In this document: piece after piece, positions 1-37,975 of the stretch | How the letters are laid out: the number at the start of each line of letters is the position of its first letter | Numbering within the stretch: position 1 is the first letter of the stretch | DNA from: an uncultured Gammaproteobacteria bacterium | Lineage (GTDB): Bacteria > Patescibacteriota > Microgenomatia > Levybacterales > UBA12049 | Direction of reading: 5' to 3' | Length of the DNA: 64,000 bases | NCBI GenBank assembly: GCA_964503265.1 | Contig: CAZCYO010000003.1 | Coordinates: 23,740 to 87,739, forward strand | Program-made: the position numbers and the translations under genes | Notes under the pieces: generated by a model | What the model was told of the DNA's origin: nothing | Database searches by the model: none | Seen by the model: the letters and a program-made list of their open reading frames with translations, nothing else

Positions 1-163
1 GAGGAAGTTTTTTTCCTCTCTATATACTGAACTATATTTGGAGTTTTGTGTCAAGGTAGGGTGTCCTTGATTTCGATAATGATAAGAAGTAGAATTGTAC
101 ACCTAATTTAAATTAGAAGAGTGTGAGGGTGTAAGAAAAGTTTGTACGCTTTATATAGATATG

Positions 164-253
164 TGGCGGAGAGGGCGAGATTCGAACTCGCGGTGAGCGT
201 GAACCCACAGATGTTTTCAAGACAACCGCACTAGACCACTATGCGACCTCTCC
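164..253 (-). tRNA. tRNA-Ser (anticodon UGA), long variable arm, CCA encoded
   Basis: Reverse complement reads GGAGAGGTCGCATAGTGGTCTAGTGCGG..CTTGAAA..GTTCGAATCTCGCCCTCTCCGCCA. Acceptor GGAGAGG/CCTCTCC pairs, anticodon loop CUUGAAA, T-loop GTTCGAATC, about 90 nt. Confidence 0.8.
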
Positions 254-414
254 ATGATTATTTTTTAAATCTAAATTCAGATCGTCCTGGTGAGGGCGAC
301 CTCTCCATATTGGCATATAGCGCTTGGCTAATAGCGAATAGTTGGAGTATTATAACAAATTTTTCTATGGTATGTTGCCTTGACTGACACTTCTTCCTCA
401 AGTACACTAATAGT

Positions 415-1083
415 ATGGCTGCCCCAGGTGAACATGATATAACATATCTTCCAAAAGTTGCTCTTGATCTTCCTCGTCCTGAACTCATGTTTCCAGAACC
501 TGAAGAAGAAATTCCAGCGCACGCATCATCGCTTAATCAGCATACACAGCGAGATGAAGAACATGAATATCAGAATCAATCTTCAAATGACGTAAAGACA
601 TTACTCTCATGGCATGCTCCCGGTCGGCCATTTCAGAGAAAAGGGAAAGAGTATTACGTGAATATTCTGCTTATCATGCTGCTTCTTCAGGTAGTGCTTT
701 TCCTCTTTCATGAATATTTGGCGATGTTCGTCGTGCTTTCATTTGTATTTGTCGCATTTGCTCTCGCTACTGTTCCACCGAAGGACTTTTTTTACCGAAT
801 CTCAACTGAAGGGATTATGATTGAAGACCATTTCTTTCTCTGGCAGGAGTTATATGATTTTTACTTTCGAAGGCTTCCAAATGGAGAAGACATACTACTC
901 GTTCGAACGAAAGCATATATCCCAGGGGAGTTAACGATAGTACTCGGACAACTCCATAAAGAACAGGTGAGACAGATACTTATCCCATATCTACCATTTA
1001 GAGAATACGTCAAACCCACCTTTGTCGAAAAATCAGGAGACTGGTTATCCCACAATTTTCCACTTGAGAAAACGAAACAATAG
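415..1083 (+). CDS. hypothetical membrane protein (acidic N-terminus, two TM helices)
   Basis: 222-aa ORF. Hydrophobic stretch ILLIMLLLQVVLFLF..FVVLSFVFVAFALA. No recognisable catalytic motif. Confidence 0.4.
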   Translation: MAAPGEHDITYLPKVALDLPRPELMFPEPEEEIPAHASSLNQHTQRDEEHEYQNQSSNDVKTLLSWHAPGRPFQRKGKEYYVNILLIMLLLQVVLFLFHEYLAMFVVLSFVFVAFALATVPPKDFFYRISTEGIMIEDHFFLWQELYDFYFRRLPNGEDILLVRTKAYIPGELTIVLGQLHKEQVRQILIPYLPFREYVKPTFVEKSGDWLSHNFPLEKTKQ

Positions 1084-1143
1084 TCCTCGATAGGGTTCAT
1101 TTGCTTCAAAACTCAGAATCAGTTAAAATTACAAGCGTAATAT

Positions 1144-1217
1144 GCTCTCGTAGCTCAGCTGGATAGAGCGCAACTTTGCGGAAGTTGAGGCCGTTGGTCC
1201 GAATCCAATCGAGAGCA
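1144..1217 (+). tRNA. tRNA-Arg (anticodon GCG by hand folding)
   Basis: GCTCTCG-TA-GCTC-AGCTGGATA-GAGC-G-CAACT-TTGCGGA-AGTTG-AGGCC-GTTGG-TCCGAAT-CCAAT-CGAGAGC-A. All four stems pair. Anticodon loop TTGCGGA. Confidence 0.7.
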
Positions 1218-1304
1218 CACTGTCAAACGCGGTCTCGCGTGAAGCTATATTTGTAAGTATATCGGAGGTGGGACGATCTGAGACTAGATTTAAGAAATAA
1301 TCAG

Positions 1305-1393
1305 GGAGGGATCGCATAGTGGTCTAGTGCGGCGGTTTCGAAAACCGCTGTCTCGAGTAATCGGGACCGGGAGTTCAAATCTCCCTCCCTCCG
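1305..1393 (+). tRNA. tRNA-Ser (anticodon CGA)
   Basis: GGAGGGATCGCATAGTGGTCTAGTGCG-GCGGT-TTCGAAA-ACCGC-long variable arm-GGGAG-TTCAAAT-CTCCC-TCCCTCC-G. Acceptor and T arm pair. Long extra arm as in class II tRNAs. Confidence 0.8.
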
Positions 1394-1424
1394 CAGTATT
1401 TAATCTCTTATGAAGTGAAAATTG

Positions 1425-3563
1425 TTAGTGTAGATCGAATGTTGATCCAAATGCTCCGGCAGCTCCCGTCGCTCCCATTGCTCCAGCTCCGATTGCAGCA
1501 GCTCCGGCTCCTGACGCGACAGCCAATCCGATTGGTGCTGCAACTACCATTCCTAATGCCGCAAGAATTGCTAAGATCCATTTCGCTTTTGGCGAATCTG
1601 GAACAATACCTTGTTCACGAAGTGCATTCATAACTTCAGATGATGAACCAGATTGTGCGGAAGCAAAAATTTTACTTAGATTCTCAACTCCACCAAAATT
1701 GTCATGGAGTTTTTTCCATTCATGTTCTTTAAGCGCAAGCTTTCCCATTGCTATTTCAGCTCCGAATACTCCAACAGTTCTATCTGCAGAGCCTCGTGCC
1801 ATAAAGAAGTCTGTCATTAATTTCTTTGTATAGTCTTTCCCAAATTTATCATACGCTGCTGTTAATTGATTTTGTTGTTCTTCAGTTAGTTTATCCATAA
1901 AATCTGCTCCTTCCCAATCTTTGCTATTAGTAGGGAGGATATCAAGGTCTCGAAGAATAAGTTGTTTTACTCCGTCTTCACCATTATAAATAAGATAACT
2001 CATATCGTCTTTCATTTGATCTCTATTTTTCTTTCTATTCTCTCTTCTGGTTGTTCGATCGTAGGTGATCCAATTATTCTTCATTTTATCGGCTAATTTT
2101 TTAGCATCATCTGAACCTTCCTGTTCCATTCTGGCGAGGTCAGCTTCTAAGATATCATCATACTGTTCTTCCATAATCTCGGTAATTGATAATCCCATAA
2201 TTTCTTGCATTTCTTGAATAAGCTTATTTTCCTCTCGAAGACGTGTTTGTCTTGCTTGCTCTTGAGCAGTTCCTGCTTTTGTTCCGTTTGCCGCAATCTC
2301 TCCTTCAGCAGTAGCTATCTTTCCATTACTTTCTGAGATAGCTGCTAGTGATTGTGCCATGCGACTTGTATATTTCCCGTCCACATTGGGAACTGTCATT
2401 GCATTAATTCTATCGGAAAGTGATTTTGCACTGGTAAATCGAGCAGTATCTGCTTGCATTGTTGCATAGTCAGTAAGTGTTGTAGCATGTGCTGCTTCGA
2501 GGTTAGTAATTTCGGCTGTTAAAGCTACTGCTTCGGGGGTGGTTTTATCAGTCATCGCATCAAGCTCAGCTTTTGCCCCTTCGATGTCACCTGAGGCTGT
2601 CATATAATTGTTATACAACTTCACATCAGGATTGCTATTTATAACTACGGTTCTTAGAGTATCAGAGAAGTTTTTAATATCAGCATCAGTCCCTGATGCC
2701 ATATGATCTTTGACCATCTTTTTGAGTTCGTTTTCTTTCTTTTTAATTTCTCCTTTATCAGTAAGAGGAACACCTGCTCCATCAACCATAAAACCAAGTA
2801 GTTTGGCAGATTCGATAACTTGTTTTGTTGACTGGTCAATTCTCGCTTGTTCCTGGTCAATTGTTGCACGTGCTCCTTCTGTGGCTGGATCTTCTTTAAT
2901 TTTAGGTAGTCCGTCTTTTTTCTGTGATACTTCAGAAAGTTTTTGTGAGATTTTTTTAGCCAGATCTGGTTTTGATAGAAGGGTTTGTTCAACGAATGCT
3001 CTTTTACTTTCAGCATCAGGAAACGCATTTAATGTATCACCGAATGTCTCTTGAAAATACGAAGAATTTATAAGTGAATCAAGTGTCGTTTGGCGAAATG
3101 TCGCTAGCGCTTTTCTATCGGGGATACCATGCTTGGTTAAAATATCTGGTATTTTTGCTCCAGGCTCATTTAATTCACTACGAATCTGAGAGTAACTAAG
3201 AAAACCTGTAAGCTCTGTAACAACTTTTCCTGCTTCATCTCGAGCGTCTTTAAACTCACCTCGAGGATTTTTTTCTCCATTTCCAAAAGCTTGTACGAGT
3301 GCATCTTTATTATCAGGGTCAAATTCAGGTACCTTTTTCCCTCTTTCTAAATTTTTACGAAATATTTCTCTTCCAGAAGCTTGAGGAGCGGTTTCTCGTA
3401 TATCTTTTGCACGACGTTGACCAAAATCTATCCTTCGTGCTTGTTCGGGGTTTGTTGTATCATCAATTTTGTCACGCAAATTAGACTTTACTTCACCCAT
3501 TGAAGAAAGTACTTCTCCTGCTTTATATTCTCGTGGTGCTGCTGATGGTGTTCCGTCTGCCAT
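1425..3563 (-). CDS. large (712 aa) charged coiled-coil protein with C-terminal Gly/Ala-rich (glycine-zipper) hydrophobic tail; unknown function
   Basis: Long ORF rich in K/E/D/Q heptad-like segments. The C-terminal 60 aa are WILAILAALGMVVAAPIGLAVASGAGAAAIGAGAMGATGAAGAFG. No enzymatic motif recognised. Confidence 0.5.
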   Translation of the reverse strand: MADGTPSAAPREYKAGEVLSSMGEVKSNLRDKIDDTTNPEQARRIDFGQRRAKDIRETAPQASGREIFRKNLERGKKVPEFDPDNKDALVQAFGNGEKNPRGEFKDARDEAGKVVTELTGFLSYSQIRSELNEPGAKIPDILTKHGIPDRKALATFRQTTLDSLINSSYFQETFGDTLNAFPDAESKRAFVEQTLLSKPDLAKKISQKLSEVSQKKDGLPKIKEDPATEGARATIDQEQARIDQSTKQVIESAKLLGFMVDGAGVPLTDKGEIKKKENELKKMVKDHMASGTDADIKNFSDTLRTVVINSNPDVKLYNNYMTASGDIEGAKAELDAMTDKTTPEAVALTAEITNLEAAHATTLTDYATMQADTARFTSAKSLSDRINAMTVPNVDGKYTSRMAQSLAAISESNGKIATAEGEIAANGTKAGTAQEQARQTRLREENKLIQEMQEIMGLSITEIMEEQYDDILEADLARMEQEGSDDAKKLADKMKNNWITYDRTTRRENRKKNRDQMKDDMSYLIYNGEDGVKQLILRDLDILPTNSKDWEGADFMDKLTEEQQNQLTAAYDKFGKDYTKKLMTDFFMARGSADRTVGVFGAEIAMGKLALKEHEWKKLHDNFGGVENLSKIFASAQSGSSSEVMNALREQGIVPDSPKAKWILAILAALGMVVAAPIGLAVASGAGAAAIGAGAMGATGAAGAFGSTFDLH

Positions 3564-3564
3564 A

Positions 3565-4239
3565 TTAGTTAGTTATATTAGTTAACTGATCTTGAATAGA
3601 ATCAATTTTATTTTGGTCAGCATCTGTTGTAATGTATTTCATTCCGATAGTGTTATAGATAGGCCAGCGTTCGCCAAGTTCTTTTAGGAAATTGACGAGG
3701 TCGGCTTTCGTTTGGACGGAATCTAAATGATCGAGGACGAATTGGGAAGAAGCTTCTGAATCTTCAACCTCTATCTCTCCTTTATCGAGAGCTTCCATCA
3801 TCGCATCAGCTAAGTCTTTATAGAGACTTTCTCTATCTTCCGAAGGTATCTCTCCTAGAACTGAAGCTGGGGCAGGGGAAGTGGTTGCCTGTTCAGTTGG
3901 AGCTGTCGTCACTGCAGGTTCAGGGGCTGGAGAGGTGGAAACGGGGTCGGAAACAGGAGATGGTTGCATAGGAGATGGTATATCTGTCTGGACTGGAGGA
4001 GCGAATGTGTCAGACACAGCAGGTGTCATCGGGTCTGGGATAGCTGGGATGACACTTGGAGCAGGTGGGGTGACTGGATCAGGAGACGTCTCAGGGATCG
4101 TCGGCATAGGAGATGGAACAGTTGGAGTAGGAGTAGACCATGATGATGTCGGAACGACAGGAGTGTCTGTCTGAGGTACAGGTGGAGTAGGTGTGATTGA
4201 CGAATCAACAGAAACATCTGGAGCAGCATTAGAATCCAT
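3565..4239 (-). CDS. Pro/Thr/Ser-rich low-complexity protein with small C-terminal globular domain; unknown function
   Basis: 224-aa ORF 2 nt upstream of the large coiled-coil gene, so likely co-transcribed. The first ~130 aa are PT(S)-rich linker-like sequence. Confidence 0.45.
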   Translation of the reverse strand: MDSNAAPDVSVDSSITPTPPVPQTDTPVVPTSSWSTPTPTVPSPMPTIPETSPDPVTPPAPSVIPAIPDPMTPAVSDTFAPPVQTDIPSPMQPSPVSDPVSTSPAPEPAVTTAPTEQATTSPAPASVLGEIPSEDRESLYKDLADAMMEALDKGEIEVEDSEASSQFVLDHLDSVQTKADLVNFLKELGERWPIYNTIGMKYITTDADQNKIDSIQDQLTNITN

Positions 4240-4287
4240 ATATTAACAGTATGGGAAATCTGAAATGTTGTCAATACACGAGTCTTT

Positions 4288-4698
4288 TTAGCTTTGTTTT
4301 GCGACAGAAATCGCGCCTTCGACATTACCTGCTTTAATATGTGTCGCCATGGCTGATATTTTCCGTTGTCGTTCTTCTTCTTCTATCGGTCCGGCAAATT
4401 TTACGTACAGCGCTTTCGCCTCATCGTATCTAACACTCAGTGAATTAAGTTTTTGTACCAAATCATGTTTGTCCTTGAAGGGAAGGAGGGCAAGAAATTC
4501 TTGGGAAAGTTTTTGGGCTTCTTCAACGGTTAGCTTACTTGATTCTAAATTATCGATGATATGTGCTACCAAGTCTTTCTCAACCTCCTGAGTGAGTGGA
4601 TCTGTGTATGTAGAATCGTCCTGTCCAGACGGTGGCGTTGATGAGTTTTGTGGATCCATAATCGATTCTATCATTGCCAAAAAAGCGAGAAAAGTCAA
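4288..4698 (-). CDS. hypothetical protein (first gene of a 3-gene minus-strand islet)
   Basis: 136-aa ORF co-oriented with the two downstream genes. Start codon uncertain (alternative Met at MIESIMD). Confidence 0.4.
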   Translation of the reverse strand: MTFLAFLAMIESIMDPQNSSTPPSGQDDSTYTDPLTQEVEKDLVAHIIDNLESSKLTVEEAQKLSQEFLALLPFKDKHDLVQKLNSLSVRYDEAKALYVKFAGPIEEEERQRKISAMATHIKAGNVEGAISVAKQS

Positions 4699-4785
4699 GA
4701 AAAAGGAAAGAGGGGAATGGTATAATCGTGAATGGTTATTAGTTATTGGTGATTAGTTATTAGACATTTTTTGTGAAGTGACTGT

Positions 4786-4927
4786 TACCTAATCGCTCAG
4801 GACTAATAAGGTGGGAAGGATTTGCCCTGCTTAGGCAGGACGATCCTACTATCTATAATCAAGAAATTAATCAAGGAAGGATCGCCCTCGACAGGACGAG
4901 TCCTAATTATAATTAAATAATTAATCA
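4786..4927 (+). repeat. two decayed tandem copies of a tRNA-Ser 5'-half-like unit (~55-65 bp) immediately upstream of tRNA-Ser(GGA)
   Basis: GGTGGGAAGGATTTGCCCTGCTTAGGCAGGACGATCC...AATCAAGGAAGGATCGCCCTCGACAGGACGAGTCC...AATCAAGGAAGGATCGC then the true tRNA. The motif AATCAAGGAAGGATCGC occurs twice. A shortened relative, GGTGGGACGATC...AATCAGGGAGGGATCGC, precedes tRNA-Ser(CGA) at 1268-1304. Confidence 0.6.
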
Positions 4928-5014
4928 AGGAAGGATCGCATAGTGGTCTAGTGCGCACGCTTGGAAAGCGTGTGTCGCCGCAAGGTGACCGGGGGTTCGA
5001 ATCCCCCTCCTTCC
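4928..5014 (+). tRNA. tRNA-Ser (anticodon GGA)
   Basis: GGAAGGATCGCATAGTGGTCTAGTGCG-CACGC-TTGGAAA-GCGTG-variable arm-CGGGGG-TTCGAAT-CCCCC-TCCTTCC-G. All arms pair. Confidence 0.8.
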
Positions 5015-5138
5015 GCCGCGTCGGAGCTCAGCTTAACCGTTTCGTCAGCCTGTTGGCTGATTGCACTTTTCAGTTGGTTCCTCCTCTTTAACTTAGCGTA
5101 GCAAAGTTAGAAAGAACAACTAAAACAACAAAAAGACT

Positions 5139-5166
5139 CCATATTTCAGGAGTCTTTTTTATTTGA
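5139..5166. terminator. bidirectional rho-independent terminator (AAAAAGACTCC-loop-GGAGTCTTTTTT)
   Basis: An 8-bp stem AGACTCCT/AGGAGTCT flanked by an A-run on one side and a T-run on the other. It lies between the 3' end of tRNA-Ser(GGA) (+) and the 3' end of the hsp20 gene (-). Confidence 0.7.
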
Positions 5167-5178
5167 AAGCAGTCAGAC

Positions 5179-5583
5179 TTATTTCGTCTTTACTGTGATC
5201 TTCTTGGGTTGTGTCACTGGAGATTTCGTGAAGGTTATTCGCATTACTCCATGGACACTTTCTGCCTCTGGTTCGCGGGTTAGATCTAACTCTCCGGGAA
5301 CTGCAACACGGTATGAGAAAGAACTCGTTGCCTTGCGGTAGAATTTTTTTTCTTTTTCTTCCTCAGCTATTTCACCTTTAATCCAGAGTACGCCTTTATC
5401 AAATGTTATCTCAACATGTTTCGGATCGACTCCGGGAAGCGCTGCTTCAACATATACGTGTTCGTTATCTTCTGAAACAGTAAGCCCTGTCGGTGAGGTG
5501 AAACTCATCGTATCATCCTCATCAAGAAGGGTACGAAACTGTGGAAATGTGAAGAAAGATCGTGGAAGTATATCATTGTTCAT
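5179..5583 (-). CDS. Hsp20/alpha-crystallin family small heat-shock protein
   Basis: 134 aa. Alpha-crystallin domain signature ...YVEAALPGVDPKHVEITFDKGVLWIKGE...SFSYRVAVPGELD...VHGVMRITF. Confidence 0.85.
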   Translation of the reverse strand: MNNDILPRSFFTFPQFRTLLDEDDTMSFTSPTGLTVSEDNEHVYVEAALPGVDPKHVEITFDKGVLWIKGEIAEEEKEKKFYRKATSSFSYRVAVPGELDLTREPEAESVHGVMRITFTKSPVTQPKKITVKTK

Positions 5584-5788
5584 CTATGTATCACCTCCTT
5601 TCCTAGATTAAATATCTACAATTTGTGATGTCACGATGGTAATCGGGACGCCGTTGTAACAATAATTAGCAATACTATACAACGACTGCTAATTTTTGTC
5701 AAGAGGGTGTGTCTTGAGGAGGGAGAATCAATTTCGCTATTATAACAATTGACGGGATACTATTTCTTTACTACTATCTATACAACAT

Positions 5789-6739
5789 ATGTCCGATCAA
5801 TCAGGAAAAGAGGGAGAGCAAGGAGCACATAACTTAGCTAAACAGCCAGATAGTAAGATTCCAGAAGCGTCGCAACCAGGAGAAAAGCAAGTAGATAATC
5901 TTCATGGCAGTCAAGAAGGCGAGAGTACTAATGAAGCAAGTATCTTAGCTCATGCACTTGATCCACTTGAAGTACTCGCATCTCCATTAGAAAGAGAAAA
6001 ATTACTGTATGTACTCTCAACTATTGGTCGTGCACAAGATGCTATAACAGCTGCCTTTCCACAGTTAGGAGGAGATTATCCGTATAAAGCCTTTATGAAG
6101 GTTGATCCAACTCTTAAAAAGCCTCACGCTAGTTTTCTAAATTACAGAGGAGTAAAAGTAATTGTTTTAGAAAGTCCTACAGATTACACATCGGATGGTT
6201 TTGGAGATGAGGTAGTAGCATCACCTTTTTCAGAAGAGACTCAGTATAAAAGGGATATAGTATCTCTTTATGCGATGCTTCACGAAGTGGGAGGACATCT
6301 GACGTATGACCATATCACAAATCCTGATAATCTTCCTACAACTCCAGACTATTACAATACTATTGATGCAGCAGTGAGTGAAGGATTTGCTGTTATGACA
6401 GAATTAGCAGTAGTAGATAAAATTATAAATGGAACAGTTCCAGGATTTACTGCAGAAGAAAGAGCTGCTTTGTCTCAACTACGAGCAGAAAGACTTAACA
6501 GTTCTTATCTAACCGGTCTTCATGCAAACGAAAACGCGTATGGAGAAGGGCATACTATCATGCAAAACGTGTATGAGAAAGGTGGTATGGATGGAGCGCT
6601 AGATTTTATAGGACAGTTAGATTCATACAAAACCAGAGGTGTTTCTCGTGGAGTACCTCACTATCGTCAATCACTTATTACTGGAGATTCAGAAGAATTT
6701 CTTGGCTTCTTTCAAAAACCTTCAGATGAAGAAGTATAA
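5789..6739 (+). CDS. hypothetical protein (contains HEVGGH, a non-canonical HExxxH motif)
   Basis: 316-aa ORF with an acidic, low-complexity N-terminus and no TM segment. MLHEVGGHLTYDH resembles a zincin motif but with the wrong spacing. Confidence 0.4.
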   Translation: MSDQSGKEGEQGAHNLAKQPDSKIPEASQPGEKQVDNLHGSQEGESTNEASILAHALDPLEVLASPLEREKLLYVLSTIGRAQDAITAAFPQLGGDYPYKAFMKVDPTLKKPHASFLNYRGVKVIVLESPTDYTSDGFGDEVVASPFSEETQYKRDIVSLYAMLHEVGGHLTYDHITNPDNLPTTPDYYNTIDAAVSEGFAVMTELAVVDKIINGTVPGFTAEERAALSQLRAERLNSSYLTGLHANENAYGEGHTIMQNVYEKGGMDGALDFIGQLDSYKTRGVSRGVPHYRQSLITGDSEEFLGFFQKPSDEEV

Positions 6740-6744
6740 ATACA

Positions 6745-6772
6745 AAGTGGCGGAGGAGACAGGATTTGAACC
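6745..6772 (-). repeat. orphan duplicated 3' fragment of a tRNA-Ser-like gene (T-arm plus acceptor plus CCA), candidate att-site scar
   Basis: Minus strand reads ACAGG-TTCAAAT-CCTGT-CTCCTCC-G-CCA. There is no matching 5' half (GGAGGAG...) in the flanking 100 nt. It closely resembles the 3' end of tRNA-Ser(GCT) ~670 bp away (GCAGG-TCCGAAT-CCTGT-ACCCTCC-G). Confidence 0.55.
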
Positions 6773-6800
6773 TGTGTGAGTCTTGCGACTTGGACGTATG

Positions 6801-7439
6801 TTAATCGAAGAATGATTCACTTTTTTTTAATAATTCTTCATACAATCCAATTAACTTTAACTGTAATTTAAAGTCATAATATCGTAAGCTGCATGTTCCC
6901 AGGTATGTTTTCCTGTGTTTTCCTCCTCTAATTTCTGTAATGGTAGGTTTGATAAATCTCTCGGGGGGAATAGAGAGAAGGTTACTCCAGTACTCTCTAA
7001 TCTCAGAAAAATTATGTATATTGTGAATCTGCAAATGAACTCGTAACTTTGTTTCATTAATGGAAAATGCATTTCTTAACAATGTAAGAAATAACCTAAT
7101 AAGATTGGGATCACTATTCGTAAAAATCATTTTATTGCTTGCCGGATATTTAGTTCCTTCGCACCAGTAGAGTATTGAAAGATAAATTTTTGCTTGTGTA
7201 GAAGATAAAGTAGTAATTGAATCTAGAGAAGATATTTCAGATTGTTTTATTTCAATGCGTTTTCTATCATTACTTAATAATAATGTGTCTTGTCTTGAGG
7301 TTATTGTTTCACCTTTACACCAATTGCGGATAGTAGTTGCTGGAATGCCAGTTATTTTTTGTAATTCGGCAAAAGAATATCCCTTCGCTTTTCGTAGGTC
7401 AACTGCTGAGATAATATCTGCATCTTGGTACTTCCTCAT
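6801..7439 (-). CDS. HTH-domain protein, possible LAGLIDADG-type homing endonuclease (weak call)
   Basis: N-terminal HTH GYSFAELQKITGIPATTIRNWCKG. Downstream YLSILYWCEGTKYP...LIRLFLTLLRNAF fits the LAGLIDADG helix pattern (hydrophobic-x-G-hydrophobic-hydrophobic-D/W-x-E-G). I trimmed the start to MRKYQ so the gene begins immediately after tRNA-Ser(GCT). It sits between the tRNA and its duplicated 3' fragment. Confidence 0.35.
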   Translation of the reverse strand: MRKYQDADIISAVDLRKAKGYSFAELQKITGIPATTIRNWCKGETITSRQDTLLLSNDRKRIEIKQSEISSLDSITTLSSTQAKIYLSILYWCEGTKYPASNKMIFTNSDPNLIRLFLTLLRNAFSINETKLRVHLQIHNIHNFSEIREYWSNLLSIPPERFIKPTITEIRGGKHRKTYLGTCSLRYYDFKLQLKLIGLYEELLKKSESFFD

Positions 7440-7442
7440 AAG

Positions 7443-7527
7443 CGGAGGGTACAGGATTCGGACCTGCGGACAGTTATTCACCGTCACGGCTTAGCAAGCC
7501 GCTCCATTACCACTCTGGCAACCCTCC
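7443..7527 (-). tRNA. tRNA-Ser (anticodon GCU)
   Basis: Reverse complement GGAGGGT-TG-CCAGAGTGGTAATGG...GCGGC-TTGCTAA-GCCGT-long variable arm-GCAGG-TCCGAAT-CCTGT-ACCCTCC-G. Acceptor and anticodon stems pair. The D-arm fold is less clear. Confidence 0.65.
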
Positions 7528-7587
7528 GTAAACCTATTATATTTTAAACCCTCCTGTCGAGCAATAAGGATTTGCTACACTATCTCT

Positions 7588-8280
7588 ATGCATCTTTTCG
7601 ATTTGCTGTTTCCGAAAAAGTGTGTGAGTTGTGGTTCGTTTGGGTCATATATTTGTAGCAATTGCTTTGCCAAAATATCGTTTGAAGTGGAGTCTATTTG
7701 TGTAGAGTGTAACAGAGCTGCAATCGATGGGATAACCCATCCTGGATGTAAAAAACGATATTCACTTAACGGCGTATTATCGAGCGTGAAATATAATGGT
7801 GTGATGAAAAAAGCACTGTATAGATTTAAATACGCACCATATATAAAACAAATCGAGACAGTGTTAATTGAACTTTTTTATGAAGGACTCATCCAAAAAG
7901 AATTGTTTCATACGTTGCGCCTGAAGAACGCTGTATTTGTCCCTATTCCGCTTCATCCAGAAAAACTAAAAAGTCGAGGATATAACCAGGCAGAAATTTT
8001 AGCAAATGGTATCGCAAAAGAGATGGGAATGGAGAGTAAAAACGTATTATATCGACAGAAGAAAACGCAGTCGTCATTTACGTTGACCCGCGAACAAAGG
8101 CAGAAGAATATCGATGAGGCATTTGTTATAAAAACAGATGTGGTGCTGACTCCCGATATGACGATACTGTTAGTTGATGATATCGTGACGACAGGTGCGA
8201 CGCTTAGTGAAGCGGCAAAACTACTTAAAAAGAATGGCGTAAAAAGTGTGTGGGGAGTGACGCTGGCTCATGGGAAGTAA
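7588..8280 (+). CDS. comFC: ComF family protein (ComFC-type double zinc ribbon plus phosphoribosyltransferase domain)
   Basis: N-terminal CVSCGS...CSNC...CVECN..GCKK zinc ribbons. C-terminal PRTase signature ILLVDDIVTTGATLSEA. Confidence 0.8.
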   Translation: MHLFDLLFPKKCVSCGSFGSYICSNCFAKISFEVESICVECNRAAIDGITHPGCKKRYSLNGVLSSVKYNGVMKKALYRFKYAPYIKQIETVLIELFYEGLIQKELFHTLRLKNAVFVPIPLHPEKLKSRGYNQAEILANGIAKEMGMESKNVLYRQKKTQSSFTLTREQRQKNIDEAFVIKTDVVLTPDMTILLVDDIVTTGATLSEAAKLLKKNGVKSVWGVTLAHGK

Positions 8281-9726
8281 TTATTTCCCCTGGCATTCTG
8301 TTCTCACAACAGGAATAGTATCTTTGTGTATGGCTTTGGCTAGCTTGCATGTTTTTATGATATTTATTCGTACATCGGTATTTGATGGATTTAATTTTTT
8401 GGCTTTTTGGAACTCTGTGAGTGCTTTTTCTGGCTCAAAATATACGAAGTGAATAAGACCTAATTGATTATGTTTTTCTGCACTTTCGGGAAGAAGATGA
8501 AGCTCTGTCCAGAGGGTAGGAATGTAGTTTTTCCAACTCATAAGTGCTTTAGGTGTTATAAAGGCGTAGTAGCCAAGTAAGCAAACTATACAAGATAGTC
8601 CGAGTACCTGGAAGTACCGGGCAATATATCTTCGGGGAGTACTCTTTACTAGGTGGGAAAACACTGTAGAGATCGTCAGGCTTGCTCCAAAAGATGCGAT
8701 AACTCCGTATCTTCCCCATAGCGGTTGGTTTTGGAATGCAATGCCCACAAGTGGCATGAGGCTTAGGAAAAACCAGATAATTCCAAATCCGATAAATGAT
8801 CGCCTGCGATATAGCCATACGCCAATCACAAAAAACAACAGAATAATTAGACTGTAGACAATCATATCTGGCTGAAATGGCGAAAGAGTAGGGTTTTGTG
8901 ATGTGGCAAGGGTTAGCTTTTTTTGAATAGCTTGAGCTGTGGGTTCTGAGGGGGGAAGGGGGAAAAAAGACGTCGTAATATATGATCCAGCGCCTTCAAT
9001 AATGATTGCGAACTTCTCTAAGATATGACTAAAAAAATCTCCACGATTACTCATATGCACAATTCCTTCGCGAACGATTAAATAGAAAAATGGGATAGAA
9101 ATAATAGAAGCGCCAACTCGTTTCGATATTTTTTCACTATGAAAATGAATATAGATGAAAAAAAGAAGAGGAAGACACAGTGTTATTTCGTACGTAAAGT
9201 ATGCAAGGGAAGAAAAAAAAAGTGTAAGAGAGAGAAATACTTGTGTCTTTTTTTCAAGTAATAGTTGAAAACAAAAAAATGATATAAATGCGAAAAGAAC
9301 ACCCAGTGTGTCAAAGCTAGCAGTGAGATTGGCGACATTATCGACATGCAGAGGCAGAAGTCCGTATATGAGTGCAGTCATGGCTGCTAAGAGATACGTA
9401 TCTGTAAGTTTTTTGGTGATGAAATAAACCAGAATAATACACAGAATATAGATGGATAAGGCTTGCATGTGATAAAGAAATAAATTGGTATGGAAGAGTT
9501 GGTAGCTTATAACGTATGCCAGTGCCCGCACCGGACGATACACGCCCTCATGAGTGTATGGCGCGTCACCCATGAGAAGTTGCGGAATATGGTGAACATC
9601 ATGAATCGCGTCCCACGTAAACAGAAAATCAATTTCATCATACAGAAAGGGAGTGTTAAAAAGAGGGAGGAATATAACGATCACAAAAGCACAAATCGCA
9701 ATAAGCGTGAGGATATCTTTCTTCAT
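8281..9726 (-). CDS. GT-C-type membrane glycosyltransferase-like protein (PMT/TMTC-like) with C-terminal TPR
   Basis: 481 aa, polytopic. N-terminal loop with a DE motif (FLYDEIDFLF) typical of family 39/83-like GT-C enzymes. C-terminal TPR-like LTEFQKAKKLNPSNTDVRINI. One of three paralogous GT-C/TPR proteins in the window. Confidence 0.55.
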   Translation of the reverse strand: MKKDILTLIAICAFVIVIFLPLFNTPFLYDEIDFLFTWDAIHDVHHIPQLLMGDAPYTHEGVYRPVRALAYVISYQLFHTNLFLYHMQALSIYILCIILVYFITKKLTDTYLLAAMTALIYGLLPLHVDNVANLTASFDTLGVLFAFISFFCFQLLLEKKTQVFLSLTLFFSSLAYFTYEITLCLPLLFFIYIHFHSEKISKRVGASIISIPFFYLIVREGIVHMSNRGDFFSHILEKFAIIIEGAGSYITTSFFPLPPSEPTAQAIQKKLTLATSQNPTLSPFQPDMIVYSLIILLFFVIGVWLYRRRSFIGFGIIWFFLSLMPLVGIAFQNQPLWGRYGVIASFGASLTISTVFSHLVKSTPRRYIARYFQVLGLSCIVCLLGYYAFITPKALMSWKNYIPTLWTELHLLPESAEKHNQLGLIHFVYFEPEKALTEFQKAKKLNPSNTDVRINIIKTCKLAKAIHKDTIPVVRTECQGK

Positions 9727-9845: not shown

Positions 9846-10169
9846 TTACGGTTGTGAAGGTGGTGGTTGGACCCATGAGACTCGTACGATTTCGTCGAGT
9901 GGGAACTCGCTCGTGTACGAGACGAAGGGAGACAACCGACCTTCTAGAGACGAGATGACGAGTAATCCTGTTTCTGCTTCAATGACTTTTCCGACGTGGA
10001 TCACGTCGTCTTCGAGATTGAAGTAGAGAGCGATCGCTCCTGGAGCTGGTGTTTCCAGTTCTTCAAGTTCGCCACGTAAGAATAACCCCATGACGTGGTT
10101 ATAGTAGTATGTGGATCCGAGAGCGTAGGAAGCAGCGTCTTTATCTGCTGATGCAGATCCGTCAGTCAT
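9846..10169 (-). CDS. hypothetical protein (GC-rich cassette A, gene 3)
   Basis: 107-aa ORF. Local GC is clearly higher than the ~40% background. Confidence 0.4.
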   Translation of the reverse strand: MTDGSASADKDAASYALGSTYYYNHVMGLFLRGELEELETPAPGAIALYFNLEDDVIHVGKVIEAETGLLVISSLEGRLSPFVSYTSEFPLDEIVRVSWVQPPPSQP

Positions 10170-10294
10170 CTTGAACCTCCTGGTGTTATGAGCGCTTCGG
10201 GAACGGGATATCGCGAAGATCAGCGACCTCGCCCTTTAGGGCAGACTGCGTGATGCGGCGAACCACACTGTAGTGGTAGCCCTTCATCTGCTCT

Positions 10295-10549
10295 TCAACG
10301 ACTCCCACGCATTGTCAGGCGATACTGCCTGGAGGGCGCAGGGTTTGAAGACGTGGGGTAGTCATTGAATGGGAGTTCTTGTTGCCATGACTGCAGGTAG
10401 CCTTTCCGAACCAAACTCTCAAGCTCACTAGTCGCAAAGCGGCCGCGAATCTTCCAGTTAATGGTTCCTTCGGTGAAAGTGCCGCTATTGAAAGCAGCGT
10501 CTTGACATGCTCGGAGGACTTCTTGTTCGCCTGGTGTAAGATCATCCAT
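10295..10549 (-). CDS. hypothetical small protein with LuxR/sigma-70-region-4-like N-terminal helix-turn-helix (cassette A, gene 2)
   Basis: 84 aa. LTPGEQEVLRACQDAA resembles the LTxRExEVL HTH start of LuxR/FixJ and sigma region 4. GC-rich. Confidence 0.35.
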   Translation of the reverse strand: MDDLTPGEQEVLRACQDAAFNSGTFTEGTINWKIRGRFATSELESLVRKGYLQSWQQELPFNDYPTSSNPAPSRQYRLTMRGSR

Positions 10550-10565
10550 CGACGCCTCCTTCGTA

Positions 10566-10910
10566 CTATTGTTCGAGCAGCTTCACGGTGGAGTCTGCCC
10601 GAGCCATGATTTCTGCGTGGAAGGCTTTCGCCTCCTGCGCCGCATCGTGTTCGAGAAGAGCATCCAGCCAGAGGGGGACTGTAGCGTAGAGAATCTCACT
10701 CACTGAGAAGGGCATACGAAGTGTGGTTACATGATCGTCAATTGATTGCATCATGTGCAAGACGAAGCCGCCCACAATTCGTCCCTGTCCGGCGAGCTCT
10801 GCGAAGCGTGGGTAGAGATCATCTACCAGTTTCGTAGCAGAGATGACGCTGGTTAAGCGCCTGATCATCTCCTCCCGATCCGGAAGGATTACACGAATGT
10901 CACTTGGCAT
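10566..10910 (-). CDS. hypothetical protein (cassette A, gene 1)
   Basis: I chose the start at MPSDIRV because a GAAGGAGA Shine-Dalgarno lies 7 nt upstream. GC-rich. Confidence 0.4.
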   Translation of the reverse strand: MPSDIRVILPDREEMIRRLTSVISATKLVDDLYPRFAELAGQGRIVGGFVLHMMQSIDDHVTTLRMPFSVSEILYATVPLWLDALLEHDAAQEAKAFHAEIMARADSTVKLLEQ

Positions 10911-10957
10911 AGGGTATTTCTCCTTCTCTGATTCAGGCTTATGCGTATCCAAATGGA

Positions 10958-11046
10958 TAGCATCTTAGGTAAGAATGAATTCCTGCCCAAAATGCTATCC
11001 ACAAAGGATTTAATTATTTCCGCAAACTGTAAAAGTGCAAAAAAAA
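10958..11046 (-). promoter_or_regulatory. upstream control module of cassette A: 10-bp inverted repeat TGGATAGCAT...ATGCTATCCA plus conserved TTTGCGGAAAT and TTTTGCAC-TTTACA motifs
   Basis: Same architecture and near-identical motifs as the region upstream of cassette B (13533-13625). Confidence 0.5.
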
Positions 11047-11154
11047 GATCTATAGTACAACAAATACGCATATGTATTGAAGTACTCTAGTTATAGCGGG
11101 ATTATAGCATTATGAAAGACGCACGGTCAAACTATAGGGCTAAAGATTGCATGT

Positions 11155-11391
11155 TTATATGAAATGTTTATTTCTGAAGGCGAAGCCTGAGTTAGTTTTT
11201 AAGTAATCTTCAAATAAAACTGCTTTTTCTTTGGACTGAAAAGCAGCATAGAAAATTAAAATGAAAGGTCGTAAATTTTTTGTTGAAGCTACAGAACCTT
11301 CTGTATGAGCTTTTATGCGGTTCTTGAGATTAGAAGAATATCCATGATAAAACGTTTTATCTTTAAGTTGGAGTATGTATACATAATACAT
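11155..11391 (-). CDS. GIY-YIG nuclease family small protein
   Basis: 78 aa. MYYVYILQLKDKTFYHGYSSNLKNRIKAH is a canonical GIY-YIG module (YVYIL..YhG.T.NL..R...H). Confidence 0.8.
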   Translation of the reverse strand: MYYVYILQLKDKTFYHGYSSNLKNRIKAHTEGSVASTKNLRPFILIFYAAFQSKEKAVLFEDYLKTNSGFAFRNKHFI

Positions 11392-11442: not shown

Positions 11443-11540
11443 GACTACGTTAGGGGCACCCTTCGCTACTATTTTCAAGCCATTTTTTTAGGAGTGTGGC
11501 CTGCCACTCCGTAGCTCATCCCGTTAGGGTATGAGCGAAG

Positions 11541-11970
11541 GGTGGAGATGTCCGGGAGCGATCCGGAGTCCGAAATATATTTTTAAAAACATCTACAAGC
11601 GTAGTCACAATTTATAGTGTCGTCTGAAACGTGTTCGAGTGACGGAATTTTTCAGACCTAGATCTCTTAATACCACGAAAGTCGAAATCAGTCTCTCTCG
11701 CTGTTTTCCTAACTGTTTTTAGGTCGTTACTTCCACGTTAGGGAGGAAGTAGGACTGTTCAAAGAGCTCGGGTCTTAAGCAGCAAGTGCGAAAGATTGAG
11801 GTGCGAATGCACCGTCAAAAGCGGATTGAACTCCGTCAGCTGCCTTGAGGGCGAATTGACGGACGCTGCGCATTGAGTCAGCATTTATTTTTTGATAATG
11901 TTTTACGACAACTTATCAATGTCGGCTTGCAGTTTTTAAAGAACGTAAATCGTCGAATCAAATCATCCCC
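11541..11970 (-). ncRNA. ssrA: tmRNA (SsrA), ~430 nt
   Basis: The 5' end, GGGGATGATTTGATTCGACGATTTACG, is near-identical to the canonical tmRNA 5' end GGGGCUGAUUCUGGAUUCGACGGGAUUUGCG. The 3' end reads GGAC-TCCGG-ATCGCTC-CCGGA-CATCTCC-A-CC, and the acceptor GGGGATG/CATCTCC includes the G3:U70 alanine identity pair. An internal reading frame ends ...GCA CTT GCT GCT TAA (…FALAA*), the typical tag terminus. The gene lies immediately downstream of smpB. Confidence 0.8.
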
Positions 11971-30056: not shown

Positions 30057-32525
30057 ATGGCACAACAATTAGACGGACTGAGAAAAAAAGTATTTTTAGA
30101 TCGATATGCGCTTAAAGGCGAAGATGGTGGCTTACTTGAAAGTACTCCTGAAGAGATGTGGAGACGCGTCGCGAAAGGAATTGCTGTCACAGAGAAAAAA
30201 GCCGATCGCAAGAAATGGGAAAAAGAATTCTACCGTGTCATGGAAGATTTCAAATTTGTTCCAGCAGGTCGTATCCTCTCTGGTGCGGGAACCGGATACC
30301 AGGTCACCTACTTTAATTGTTTCGTTATCCCATCTCCTCAAGATTCACGTCACGGAATTTTAGAAGCACTTGGTCAACTCGTTGAGATTCAGGCTCGCTC
30401 AGGTGGCGTTGGACTTAATCTTTCATCCCTTCGACCTAAAGGTGCGCGCGTTAAGAAAGTAAATGGTACGTCATCTGGGCCTGTGAACTGGGCGACGCTT
30501 TTCTCAGTTGCTACGCATGATATCGTTCAACAAGGTGGATCACGTCGTGGCGCAACCATGCTTATGCTCTGGGATTGGCATCCAGATATTGAAGAGTTTA
30601 TTACCGTTAAACAGGATCTATCAAAAATTAATGGTGCTAATCTCTCTGTTTGTGTATCTGATGGCTTTATGGAAGCTGTTAAAAATGATCGTGATTGGGA
30701 ACTTGTGTATCCAGATATTACTGATCCACGATACGACGATGAATGGAGAGGAGATCTGCCAAAGTGGAAAGAAATGGGTGGGCAAGTTATAGTCTATAAA
30801 ACTGTTAAAGCTCGATATCTTTGGGATTTGATTTGTGAAGCTGCATGGAGATCTGCAGAACCTGGCCTTCATTTCATGGAGCGATCAAACAAAAGAAGTA
30901 ACACTTGGTATTTTGAACGTCTCGTTGCGACAAATCCATGCGGCGAACAGCCACTTGGGCCATGGGCTGTGTGTAATCTTGGTGCCATGAATTTAAGTGC
31001 GTATGTTAAAGGCGGTGACCTTGCAAGTGAAAAACCAGGAGTGTTTGATTATGAAGAATTTGCAAAAGACACACGAACTGCGCTAAGACTTCTCGATAAT
31101 GTCATTGATCAAACATATTACTTTTTTAAAGAAAATGAAAAATGTGCGAAAGATATTCGACGAACTGGCCTTGGGGTTATGGGCGTAGGTGATGCTTTAA
31201 TAAAAATGAATATTAAATACGGATCTGAAGAATCTCTTCCCGTGCTTGATAAGATTTTTAAAACACTTCGTGATAATGCATACGAAGCATCGACAGAAAT
31301 TGCCGTTGAAAAAGGCGCATTCCCGATGTTTGATAAAGAAAAATACATGCAGGGATATCATATTCAGAATCTCTCAGCTGAAACACGAAAGCATATTGAA
31401 GAGCGTGGTATTCGAAATGCAGTATTGTTAACAATTGCTCCGACAGGGACGACATCACTCGTCTCAGGTGTATCAAGTGGTATTGAGCCAGTCTACGAAT
31501 TCTCCTTCCTTCGTCGCTGGAGAGGTGGAGAAGAGATTGTGTATCATCCATTATTTGAAGAGTGGAAAAAAGCACATCCTGACACAGAAGAACGACCAGA
31601 GTACTTTGTTGGCGCAAATGATTTAACTCCACTTGAGCATGTTAGTGTCCAGGCCGTAGCGCAGCAATACATTGATTCTTCTATCTCAAAAACGGTAAAT
31701 GCTCCTAACGCTCATGCGATTGATGATGTTAAAACACTCTATATGATGGCATATGATATGGGTCTTAAAGGGGTTACGTATATGAGAGATGGTTCACGTG
31801 TGGGAGTACTCGAGCGTGTTGAAGAAAAGAAAGAAGTAAAAGTAGAGGAATCAAAACCAATTATTCCAGTGACGCCTCGCGTTTCACGTCCGATGATGCT
31901 TGAGGGAACGACATATAAATCTGAAAGCCCAAGTGGAAAAATGTATGTAACGATAAATCATGATGAGAACAACCAACCATTTGAAGTCTTTATTAATAAT
32001 GGAAAATCAGGGTCAGACGTTATGGCGATGGCTGATGCGCTTGGCCGTATGATCTCATTTGTGCTTCGTATTCATAGTACTGTCCCACAGAGGGAGCGAA
32101 TTCGAGAAATTGTGTCAGAACTCACAGGTCTTGGTGGCGCGCGAAGTATAGGATTTGGTGAAAACCGTGTTCGGTCACTTCCTGATGCTGTTGCAAAAGT
32201 ACTTTCTCGTCATTTTGACTTTAGAGTAAATGGGAAAGTAGAAGATCGAGTTATTCTTCCAATCACAGCAGACGCTGTAGCTGCAGAAAGTGCTGCTCCG
32301 GTCGTTGAATCTACTACACACATAAATGGTAATGCAAATGGACATAGTAGTACTGCTGTAAATACTCCTGGACAAATGGCAATTTTGCATACAGATGTAC
32401 CAGAAAAGTCAGCTTCCTATGCTTCTACAAGTCTTTTTGATATCTGCCCCGAATGCGGCTCTGCTACGCTTGCGTATGAAGAAGGTTGTCGAAAATGCTA
32501 TAGCTGTGGACACTCAGAGTGCTAG
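30057..32525 (+). CDS. nrdJ: class II (adenosylcobalamin-dependent) ribonucleotide reductase with C-terminal zinc ribbon
   Basis: 822 aa. NPCGEQPL active-site motif. C-terminal CPECGS...CRKCYSCGHSEC. Confidence 0.85.
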   Translation: MAQQLDGLRKKVFLDRYALKGEDGGLLESTPEEMWRRVAKGIAVTEKKADRKKWEKEFYRVMEDFKFVPAGRILSGAGTGYQVTYFNCFVIPSPQDSRHGILEALGQLVEIQARSGGVGLNLSSLRPKGARVKKVNGTSSGPVNWATLFSVATHDIVQQGGSRRGATMLMLWDWHPDIEEFITVKQDLSKINGANLSVCVSDGFMEAVKNDRDWELVYPDITDPRYDDEWRGDLPKWKEMGGQVIVYKTVKARYLWDLICEAAWRSAEPGLHFMERSNKRSNTWYFERLVATNPCGEQPLGPWAVCNLGAMNLSAYVKGGDLASEKPGVFDYEEFAKDTRTALRLLDNVIDQTYYFFKENEKCAKDIRRTGLGVMGVGDALIKMNIKYGSEESLPVLDKIFKTLRDNAYEASTEIAVEKGAFPMFDKEKYMQGYHIQNLSAETRKHIEERGIRNAVLLTIAPTGTTSLVSGVSSGIEPVYEFSFLRRWRGGEEIVYHPLFEEWKKAHPDTEERPEYFVGANDLTPLEHVSVQAVAQQYIDSSISKTVNAPNAHAIDDVKTLYMMAYDMGLKGVTYMRDGSRVGVLERVEEKKEVKVEESKPIIPVTPRVSRPMMLEGTTYKSESPSGKMYVTINHDENNQPFEVFINNGKSGSDVMAMADALGRMISFVLRIHSTVPQRERIREIVSELTGLGGARSIGFGENRVRSLPDAVAKVLSRHFDFRVNGKVEDRVILPITADAVAAESAAPVVESTTHINGNANGHSSTAVNTPGQMAILHTDVPEKSASYASTSLFDICPECGSATLAYEEGCRKCYSCGHSEC

Positions 32526-32624: not shown

Positions 32625-32800
32625 GTGTTGGAAAAGTATAGGAAATCACGATGAAATTTCGTGACTGTGCCGCAACTGTGAAAGTCAGAAAACTATACTT
32701 AAGTCGTTTCATTCCCGAGCAGGAGTATTCAAGTATAGTAATCTTGTAATCCTTCTTAGGAATTGTTTTTTCTAAAGAAGGATTTTTTGTAAGAATTCTC
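32625..32800 (+). promoter_or_regulatory. cobalamin riboswitch-like leader (compact variant) with intrinsic terminator, upstream of pduO-type gene
   Basis: GGAAATCACGATGAAATTTCGTGACTGTGCCGCAACTGTGAAAGTCAGAAAAC contains the CCGCaACUGU core and an AGUCAG B12-box-like element. Followed by the terminator TCCTTCTTAG...CTAAAGAAGGATTTTTT (32757-32797). Confidence 0.5.
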
Positions 32801-37901: not shown

Positions 37902-37975
37902 GGGTGTGTAGCTCAGTGGTAGAGCGCGACTCTTATAAAGTCGATGTCCTTGGTCCGATCCCAAGCACACCCACC
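37902..37975 (+). tRNA. tRNA-Ile (anticodon UAU by hand folding)
   Basis: GGGTGTG-TA-GCTC-AGTGGTA-GAGC-G-CGACT-CTTATAA-AGTCG-ATGTC-CTTGG-TCCGATC-CCAAG-CACACCC-A-CC. All stems are Watson-Crick. Positions 34-36 read TAT. Confidence 0.65.

Follow-up and report, generated by a model that had tools for sequence, protein, structure and literature searches.

Integrative islands that target tRNA genes reportedly carry att (attachment-site) duplications of the tRNA 3' end. Here we consider a cluster of serine and arginine tRNA genes, together with the truncated tRNA copies and open reading frames (ORFs) that accompany them, in the first 7.5 kb of a 64,000-nt stretch of DNA (contig CAZCYO010000003.1, positions 23,740 to 87,739, hereafter the window) from a Levybacteria-type Patescibacterium, a member of the candidate phyla radiation (CPR). 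The closest described systems are of two further kinds. SegB of phage T4 is a free-standing homing endonuclease encoded in the T4 tRNA gene cluster and engaged in intronless homing (PMC2330249). In CPR bacteria, LAGLIDADG genes occur in rRNA insertion sequences (PMC11270868), and group I introns are described from the anticodon loop of Asn and Asp tRNA genes of Patescibacteria (PMC13011429), the available text of the latter paper yielding no mention of tRNA-Ser or of duplications in a term search. Our analysis suggests, with a probability of roughly 0.55, that the window holds an ancestral Ser/Arg tRNA cluster which was not assembled by insertion, and which is a hot spot of turnover whose likeliest drivers would be endonuclease-type selfish genes travelling with their own variant tRNA-Ser, according to the logic of intronless homing.

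The window is chromosomal and contains PBP1A, NrdJ, PurA, DnaG, SmpB and tmRNA; its ComF protein gave no match in an exact look-up. We compared it with fetched loci of relatives (labelled L019 to L211 where they must be told apart); 80 metagenomic loci were fetched, each coding for a 50-65 % relative of the 222-aa membrane protein p222, and the tRNA inventory covered 82 loci. The cluster in the window consists of the following features:

164-253, minus strand: tRNA-Ser(TGA), found by ARAGORN and Rfam (53.7 bits), native D-arm type
415-1083, plus strand: p222, a lineage-specific membrane protein used as synteny anchor (1161 homologues, named Levybacteria or Patescibacteria)
1144-1218, plus strand: tRNA-Arg(GCG), found by ARAGORN and Rfam
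1305-1394, plus strand: tRNA-Ser(CGA), found by ARAGORN and Rfam, native type
4929-5017, plus strand: tRNA-Ser(GGA), found by ARAGORN and Rfam, native type
7442-7527, minus strand: tRNA-Ser(GCT), found by ARAGORN and Rfam (51.6 bits), variant, non-native

A sequence-only reading of this DNA had already placed all four Ser genes within the first 7.5 kb, on which ARAGORN and Rfam agree, while its list lacked Arg(GCG), which is probably co-transcribed with Ser(CGA) and whose pairing with that gene is kept in relatives. That reading had attributed the clustering of Ser genes to repeated insertion, an explanation that cannot be upheld: the order comF–Ser(GCT)–Ser(TGA)–p222–Arg(GCG)–Ser(CGA)–[Arg(CCG)]–Ser(GGA) is found in ~80 relatives, with local inversions and variable gap sizes, and the clustering is therefore ancestral and not a product of insertion. 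The presence of four Ser isoacceptors within a few kb is thus an old and conserved trait of the clade. In the relative that we use most for comparison (L121), in which the p222 counterpart is 82 % identical and the Ser(TGA) gene appears identical by eye, the order runs SpoIID, 207 aa, 638 aa, SmpB, comF, Ser(GCT), hsp20, Ser(GGA), 167 aa, 714 aa, Ser(CGA), Arg, p224-like, Ser(TGA), and the layout of L208 is the same. The native tRNA-Ser D-arm sequence is TCGCATAGTGGTCTAGTGCG; among relatives, the syntenic Ser(TGA), Ser(CGA) and Ser(GCT) slots are occupied by at least five to seven very different D-arm types (e.g. GGAGGAATTGAGCAACGG…, GGAGAGGTGTCCGAGCGG… and GGAGGGATGCTGGAGCGG…).

At Ser(GCT), the native gene's first ~45 nt and the unit upstream of it (of a kind described below) have been replaced by a ~770-bp cassette, and the native 3' half has been left stranded. 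The features concerned are:

5789-6739, plus strand: orphan ORF of 316 aa, flanked by the hsp20 promoter and the remnant of the native tRNA, with no counterpart in L121
6748-6797, minus strand: orphan 3' half of the native Ser(GCT), comprising variable arm, T-arm, acceptor 3' strand and CCA
6801-7439, minus strand: 212-aa ORF with an N-terminal helix-turn-helix (HTH) and a faint LAGLIDADG_3-like core (…IYLSILYWCEGTKY…), a putative homing-endonuclease-like gene
7528-7571, minus strand: cassette-side promoter-like leader, TTGCTC-N17-TATAAT-N8-tRNA

Ser(GCT) of L121 is a different, native tRNA (GGAGGAGTCGCATAG…), and homology between the window and L121 ends just after the comF start and resumes inside this native tRNA; from these breakpoints it follows that ~770 bp (promoter-like stretch, variant tRNA and ORF) replaced ~170 bp of native sequence. 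The orphan 3' half, which is ~95 % identical to positions 49-91 of native L121 Ser(GCT), begins a few nt past the stop codon of the 212-aa ORF, and that ORF lies directly after Ser(GCT) in the sense of the tRNA. Neither this remnant nor the CTCGACAGGA that the promoter-like stretch upstream of Ser(GCT) has in common with one of the units at Ser(GGA) (GGA-b, below) had been remarked upon before. The variant Ser(GCT) begins GGAGGGTTGCCAGAG… and occurs only in the window and in L149, both of which carry the ORF, such that this type of tRNA is seen only where the ORF is present. The tRNA region of L149 and its flanks match the window at 87 % mean column identity, TATAATAG of the cassette leader is common to both, and the two ORFs are 53 % identical. 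Homologues of the ORF exist also in L176 and L207, and in all three relatives it follows a variant Ser(GCT) at 1-15 nt; in the case of L176 and L207, the end of the ORF overlaps with 33-37 nt derived from the 5' part of the native Ser(TGA). Profile comparisons of the 212-aa ORF give HTH_3 at 22.6 bits, against a cut-off of 23 bits, and phrog_8 (transcriptional regulator) at E = 6.6e-6, and no relatives of it were found in viral contigs. For the 316-aa ORF, the fetched loci contain no homologue, and neither Pfam nor PHROG gives a match. A group I intron in the tRNA gene was also considered and rejected, as Rfam gives no match at E <= 1 in 1-9000 and none at the gathering score across the whole window, and both tRNAs at the cassette are separate entities.

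In relatives, two endonuclease-like ORF families adjoin only tRNA-Ser genes, and preferentially variant ones. One is the family of the 212-aa ORF; the other is represented by an ORF between Ser(TGA) and p222 in L209, which matches PF14528 (LAGLIDADG_3) at E = 8.7e-9 (36 bits, cut-off 22.5 bits) and has tblastn homologues in 8 further loci, in all of which the distance to a tRNA-Ser gene (GCT, GGA or TGA) is 10-84 nt. Taking both families together, endonuclease-like ORFs occur in 13/86 loci, and all 13 tRNA adjacencies at 1-84 nt involve tRNA-Ser (186 distinct Ser tRNAs), against 0/79 non-Ser tRNAs; a further ORF lies 148 nt from a tRNA-Ser. Variant D-arm tRNAs are enriched beside these ORFs (10/67 against 3/119, Fisher p = 0.002). 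Additionally, orphan tRNA fragments are frequent in the cluster, and in three loci (the window, L176 and L207) they abut the HTH ORF. Further orphan fragments lie in L130/L132 (3705-3740/854-889), L164 (1769-1792), L172 (11967-12007), L194 (776-811) and L128 (914-953), 11-18 nt from intact tRNAs; they consist of the 5' 36 nt of Ser(CGA) and of 5' or 3' pieces of Arg genes, so that such debris is not limited to the Ser genes but extends to those for tRNA-Arg.

Upstream of the remaining Ser genes lie short units of 41-61 nt, in which a copy of the 5' end of the tRNA (hereafter the echo) opens a hairpin that is followed by an AT-rich tail of 25-30 nt:

254-306, minus strand: U(TGA), with the echo GAGGGCGACCTCTCC at 292-306 and an 11-nt copy of the tRNA 5' end at 296-306
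1264-1304, plus strand: U(CGA), truncated, GGAGGTG-GGACGATCT and an AT-rich tail, the echo GGAGGTG being imperfect
4794-4813, plus strand: decayed stub of a third unit (…CAGGAC…), by sequence reading
4814-4874, plus strand: U(GGA-a), with a decayed echo (GGAAGGATTTG, 8-nt exact run), a hairpin and a TATAAT-containing tail
4875-4928, plus strand: U(GGA-b), in which the 11-nt echo is exact and leads into a hairpin and an AT-rich tail

The sequence-only reading had recognised two decayed tandem copies resembling a tRNA 5' half before Ser(GGA) (4786-4927), a shortened relative before Ser(CGA) (1268-1304) and a fragment of the Ser(TGA) 5' end at 293-311. All three are borne out, with boundaries refined to 4814-4874 and 4875-4928, to 1264-1304 and to 292-306, respectively. 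U(TGA) and U(GGA-b) each open with an exact 11-nt copy of the start of the tRNA beside them. In U(TGA) this copy forms the 5' arm of the hairpin (GGUCGCCCUCACCAGGACGAUC), before a 25-nt AT-rich tail (minimum free energy, MFE, -9.9; 43.2 bits with the covariance model R1), while U(GGA-b) scores 43.5 bits with R1 and U(GGA-a), of repeat family D9, scores 30.6 bits (MFE -15.8, z = -3.3) and contains a promoter-like TAGGCA-16-TATAAT at 4832-4859. A tandem repeat of GTTATTA (four copies, 4733-4763) separates a TGGTATAAT box (4727-4736) from the GGA units, and similar TTAGTTATTAG repeats precede Ser(GGA) in relatives (L130/L131).

Units built alike occur in L121 (at TGA, GGA and GCT), L208 (at TGA, CGA and GGA) and L211 (at TGA), as well as in the more distant L180 and L189. 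U(TGA) has orthologues in the first three of these; U(GGA-b) has a single orthologous unit in L121 and one unit in L208; and at the CGA locus there are full-length units in L208 and none in L121. The GGA unit of L211 is a mini-helix variant in which both the 5' and the 3' acceptor strands are kept, and dissimilar echoes exist in other CPR lineages (L050, L055, L096 and L106). An exact 10-mer match within 130 nt is expected at ~1e-4 per gene; it is observed in 16/316 distinct tRNA-Ser contexts and in 3/139 other tRNAs. Allowing up to one mismatch, echoes accompany 10/218 Ser genes of the relative loci, window and L121 included (one of the ten lies inside a neighbouring tRNA), and 0/97 tRNA-Arg genes of relatives. 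Runs of identity extend over 10-11 nt in 14/20 cases, 14 nt in three and 18 nt in one, and all end inside the D-arm.

In the leader alignment of Ser(TGA) genes, a -10 box, TTGCTATACT, precedes the echo. The distance from this box down to the start of the echo is 8-10 nt in L208 and L211, and at that point L210, which has no unit, has the start of the tRNA itself. The echo therefore takes the position of the tRNA start, and the unit corresponds to a ~45-nt insertion after tRNA position ~11, with positions 1-11 duplicated; being downstream of the promoter, it would form part of the pre-tRNA leader. The duplicated 5' strand pairs with a complementary arm, and this hairpin is kept across paralogues and orthologues: over 13 units from six genomes, 89.7 % of cells are paired, against <=48 % in slid controls, and 3/9 pairs show compensatory change, although covariation is modest (13/500 shuffles). 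The MFE folds are consistent with this hairpin. Furthermore, the right arm follows the cognate acceptor sequence (CGAYCU at TGA, CGAUCC at GGA and CAACUC in the GCT unit of L121). Three other identities for the units were rejected, namely a dispersed repeat of the MITE (miniature inverted-repeat transposable element) or REP (repetitive extragenic palindromic) kind, given that the motif has no other copies in the window and that the covariance model recovers only the known units in 1.6 Mb; tRNA promoters in the AT-rich tails, given the conserved -10 box upstream of the echo; and terminators, since a scan gave counts equal to the shuffled expectation. The units match no Rfam family.

At all three unit loci of L208, the order is a 14-nt fragment of the tRNA 5' end, a ~100-nt element (here called E) and a normal unit:

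L208 1083-1180, 4198-4300 and the reverse complement of 1-41: element E (TCGAGCGAAGYGAGACCCTGAYGAAGTCAYGGGKTGGTCGAGCCGAAGGCAATA…), inserted right after tRNA position 14

A similar junction exists upstream of Ser(CGA) in L019. Element E contains GCGAAGC and GCCGAAGGC mini-hairpins, is confined to L208 among the fetched loci (BLAST, nhmmer), and has neither an Rfam family nor relatives in viral contigs. A hammerhead, which the motif CUGAUGA might indicate, was rejected in view of the missing Rfam match.

A potential explanation that would unite the cassette, the ORFs and the units is that the ORF products cleave native tRNA-Ser genes in their conserved D-arm, that homing then installs a resistant tRNA together with the ORF, and that imprecise repair of such breaks yields the 5'-duplication units, whose hairpin would be retained by sequestering a decoy acceptor strand otherwise able to mispair with the tRNA 3' end. 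In its full form, with the native tRNA-Ser D-arm as the homing site of at least two endonuclease families, each with a cleavage-resistant variant tRNA-Ser that replaces an essential tRNA, and with the units as repair scars kept as decoy-neutralising leader hairpins, we put this forward only tentatively and hold it to be rather doubtful. If true, it would represent chromosomal, tRNA-centred intronless homing with a recognisable footprint.

Several observations count against homing at this locus. The 212-aa ORF is only a candidate endonuclease gene: its match to PF14528 is weak (E = 0.11, 13.3 bits against a cut-off of 22.5 bits), its profile aligns with the LAGLIDADG ORF of L209 over a 14-residue motif alone (hhalign probability 2 %), and its single-sequence AlphaFold2 model (mean pLDDT, the predicted local distance difference test, 50.8) is too poor for meaningful Foldseek matches, such that the ORF could simply be an HTH regulator. 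Most variant tRNAs (57/67) have no adjacent ORF, and the echo-bearing L121, L208 and L211 contain no homing endonuclease gene in the available sequence. Unit junctions at position 11 differ from the cut site expected of a D-arm-centred LAGLIDADG enzyme, the 100-nt element E in L208 and L019 is unaccounted for, and the conservation of the hairpin and its compensatory changes can also be read as function rather than scar.

This last point leads to the best surviving alternative, which we nevertheless regard as unlikely, that the units are functional cis-acting elements of the pre-tRNA-Ser leader (acting, for example, in processing or stability, or mimicking the 5' part of the tRNA to bind a protein) and are selected as such. 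The pairing maintained in 13 units of six genomes (89.7 %, with three compensatory pairs), the right arm that tracks the cognate acceptor, the location downstream of the -10 box, from which transcription of the unit would be predicted, and the occurrence of units at several Ser genes per genome but at 0/97 tRNA-Arg genes would all be expected of such elements. However, most relatives in this clade, among them L210 at 77 %, have no unit, and the number of units varies between zero and two per gene among close relatives; the echoes of L050, L055, L096 and L106 are joined to unrelated inserts; no Rfam family is matched; and covariation that barely exceeds shuffled alignments (13/500) can arise from each tRNA's own sequence.

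Less probable again is an origin without any endonuclease, in which the units are pseudo-tRNAs, whole-gene tandem duplicates decayed through unequal recombination and internal deletion, and the ORFs resembling homing endonuclease genes are passengers. Longer remnants speak for such decay, including the two acceptor strands kept as a mini-helix at GGA in L211, the D-arm kept in the L096 unit and the 33-37-nt 5' fragments in L176, L207, L130 and L132, as do the existence of tRNA-Arg fragments and the two tandem units at Ser(GGA) of the window. Yet the promoter geometry is that of an insertion within the gene and not of a duplicate with a promoter of its own, independent lineages have their junctions concentrated at positions 10-11 and 14, and units of different loci resemble each other beyond expectation (the first CGA unit of L208 and GGA-b of the window; GGA-a of the window and the first TGA unit of L208).

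The last alternative concerns the interval between Ser(CGA) and Ser(GGA), which contains three genes:

1425-3563, minus strand: 712-aa protein, all-helical, with a hydrophobic Gly/Ala-rich C-terminal tail, of a fast-evolving CPR family
3565-4239, minus strand: 224-aa partner, with a PT-rich (proline- and threonine-rich) disordered N-terminal region and a conserved C-terminal domain of ~90 aa
4288-4698, minus strand: 136-aa protein, a distant paralogue of the partner domain

The co-oriented operon of 136-, 224- (PT-rich) and 712-aa genes described by the sequence-only reading is thus confirmed, and it is a lineage-specific, rapidly evolving module of a small partner, a 712-aa helical protein and a paralogous small gene. 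Used as query in a word-indexed homology search, neither the 712-aa protein nor the alignment of its family retrieves anything beyond the self match, while an exhaustive HMMER search recovers 95 cluster representatives of 650-780 aa that align from end to end. The protein is only 39 % identical to its closest relative, the L121 orthologue, whereas neighbouring proteins of the window and L121 are 76-90 % identical, and it is therefore evolving unusually fast. The 136-aa protein is 28 % identical to the 224-aa protein over 78 aa and has homologues in 13 relatives, mostly between Ser(CGA) and Ser(GGA). By tblastn, the C-terminal domain of the 224-aa protein matches the small ORF that immediately precedes the large gene in L121, L125, L126, L127, L199 and L187, and in L208 a small ORF also stands upstream, by position only. 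In more distant genomes a small ORF always precedes the large gene in contexts that differ: after ribosomal L13-S9 (L125), beside hrcA-grpE-dnaK (L127) and beside a LytR/amidase gene (L126). A synteny check of 1425-4700 gave a mixed answer, in that the two main genes occupy the same site in L121 and L208, whereas in the 77 % relative L210 the module is absent and Arg(GCG), Ser(CGA), Arg(CCG) and Ser(GGA) are directly consecutive, and in L199, L187 and L164 it lies in other interstices of the tRNA cluster; its position is therefore variable.

The 712-aa protein (AlphaFold2 pLDDT 81.5) has no Pfam, PDB or PHROG match, and its family profile produces only chance coiled-coil matches among PDB sequences. 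It resembles alpha-helical pore-forming toxins (XaxA/YaxA/AhlB) and phage tape-measure proteins in being long and all-helical with a hydrophobic Gly-rich segment, but has no significant sequence or fold match to tape-measure proteins, holins or alpha-pore-forming toxins, and does not lie in a phage or toxin gene neighbourhood. The earlier suggestion of pore-forming, holin-like, tape-measure-like or phage-remnant cargo consequently finds no support, there being no PHROG match, no significant toxin, holin or tape-measure fold match, no other phage or toxin signal, and ribosomal or chaperone neighbours elsewhere. The protein is probably membrane-anchored at its C-terminus, and we would most readily guess at a scaffold associated with the membrane, or a protein of the envelope, that is subject to diversifying pressure. 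With its small partner, the 712-aa family constitutes a separate lead, a conserved and very fast-evolving CPR module that is a candidate for envelope or host-interaction biology.

That the Ser tRNAs are sites of integrase-type elements, with the units as att remnants and 1425-4700 as island cargo, is a highly improbable and largely refuted model, to which partial tRNA duplicates, the variable position of the module and the fast evolution of the 712-aa protein lend some colour, but which conflicts with the absence of any integrase or recombinase domain from the nine longest ORFs between 415 and 9726 (Pfam scan), with duplicates that are copies of the 5' end, at a distance of only ~45 nt from the gene rather than at the far side of an 'island', with the lack of a flanking att-type repeat of a tRNA 3' end around 1425-4700 in a repeat search over 1-8000 (in which the Ser(GCT) piece at 6748-6797 is the sole 3' fragment), with the missing PHROG match and toxin, holin or tape-measure fold, with a cassette ORF and an element E that have no relatives in viral contigs, and with a module that adjoins ribosomal or chaperone operons in other CPR genomes. 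Taken together with the main genes being at the same site in L121 and L208, these results do not bear out an inserted islet at 1425-4700. The proposal of repeated site-specific insertion at Ser-tRNA genes survives for the units, the GCT cassette and the 13 ORF loci, and finds no support in the clustering or in this interval.

Other features of the window lie outside these arguments. The interval 9846-11391 (minus strand) is a block of 52-54 % GC in a genome of ~40 %, with three small ORFs (107, 84 and 128 aa), and a 78-aa GIY-YIG-like ORF (11155-11391) stands between the GC-rich block and tmRNA; the tmRNA-comF interval of L121 holds a different gene (GH16/PA14), and 9846-11391 looks like a foreign islet at ssrA. 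The tmRNA itself (11540-11970, minus strand, 431 nt) was recovered by Rfam (105.8 bits), was missed by ARAGORN, and may, judging by its length against a 374-position model, contain an insertion. At 5648-5710, an inverted repeat (ATTAGCA-N15-TGCTAAT) overlaps the hsp20 promoter (TTGACA-17-TATAGT, minus strand); the repeat is conserved at 8677-8715 of L121 and may be an operator resembling CIRCE (controlling inverted repeat of chaperone expression). A tRNA-Ile gene with anticodon TAT (37902-37975, plus strand, ARAGORN), an anticodon unusual for bacteria, lies just downstream of a VirD4/TraD-like ATPase gene (35470-37857), and an AdoCbl-II riboswitch (32626-32703, plus strand, 52.8 bits) lies between a B12-dependent ribonucleotide reductase gene (30057-32525) and a 189-aa ORF (32841-33410).

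Returning to the known systems, the locus has in common with tRNA-targeting integrative islands the presence of partial tRNA copies beside intact tRNA genes; such islands duplicate the 3' end, whereas here it is the 5' 10-14 nt that are copied, ~45 nt apart and upstream, with no integrase. With the rRNA insertions and tRNA introns of CPR bacteria (PMC11270868, PMC13011429), it shares the phylum, the endonuclease superfamily and stable-RNA genes as targets, but no intron is involved here and the ORF lies outside a complete tRNA. The likeness to intronless homing of the T4 SegB type, the classic analogue (PMC2330249), is closer: tRNA genes have an endonuclease-type gene as neighbour, inheritance would by analogy favour the linked tRNA region, the linked allele differs from the unlinked one, the distribution is patchy and remnants of overwritten alleles persist. 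SegB is, however, a GIY-YIG enzyme of a phage, whereas the present case involves a CPR chromosome, LAGLIDADG_3 and HTH/LAGLIDADG-like families, putative endonucleases, and ORFs that are each coupled at 1-84 nt to one tRNA-Ser gene.

If endonucleases are indeed responsible, selfish genes would invade tiny, intron-rich CPR genomes by supplying a replacement for the essential tRNA that they destroy, which would explain why so many tRNA-Ser D-arm types occupy syntenic positions and why orphan tRNA fragments are so abundant, and 5'-duplication hairpins would provide a simple footprint with which to map past attacks on tRNA genes in metagenomes. Ser-linked ORFs, variant tRNAs and remnants together make up the signature that would be expected, by analogy, if free-standing homing endonucleases were spreading in company with a target copy that resists them.

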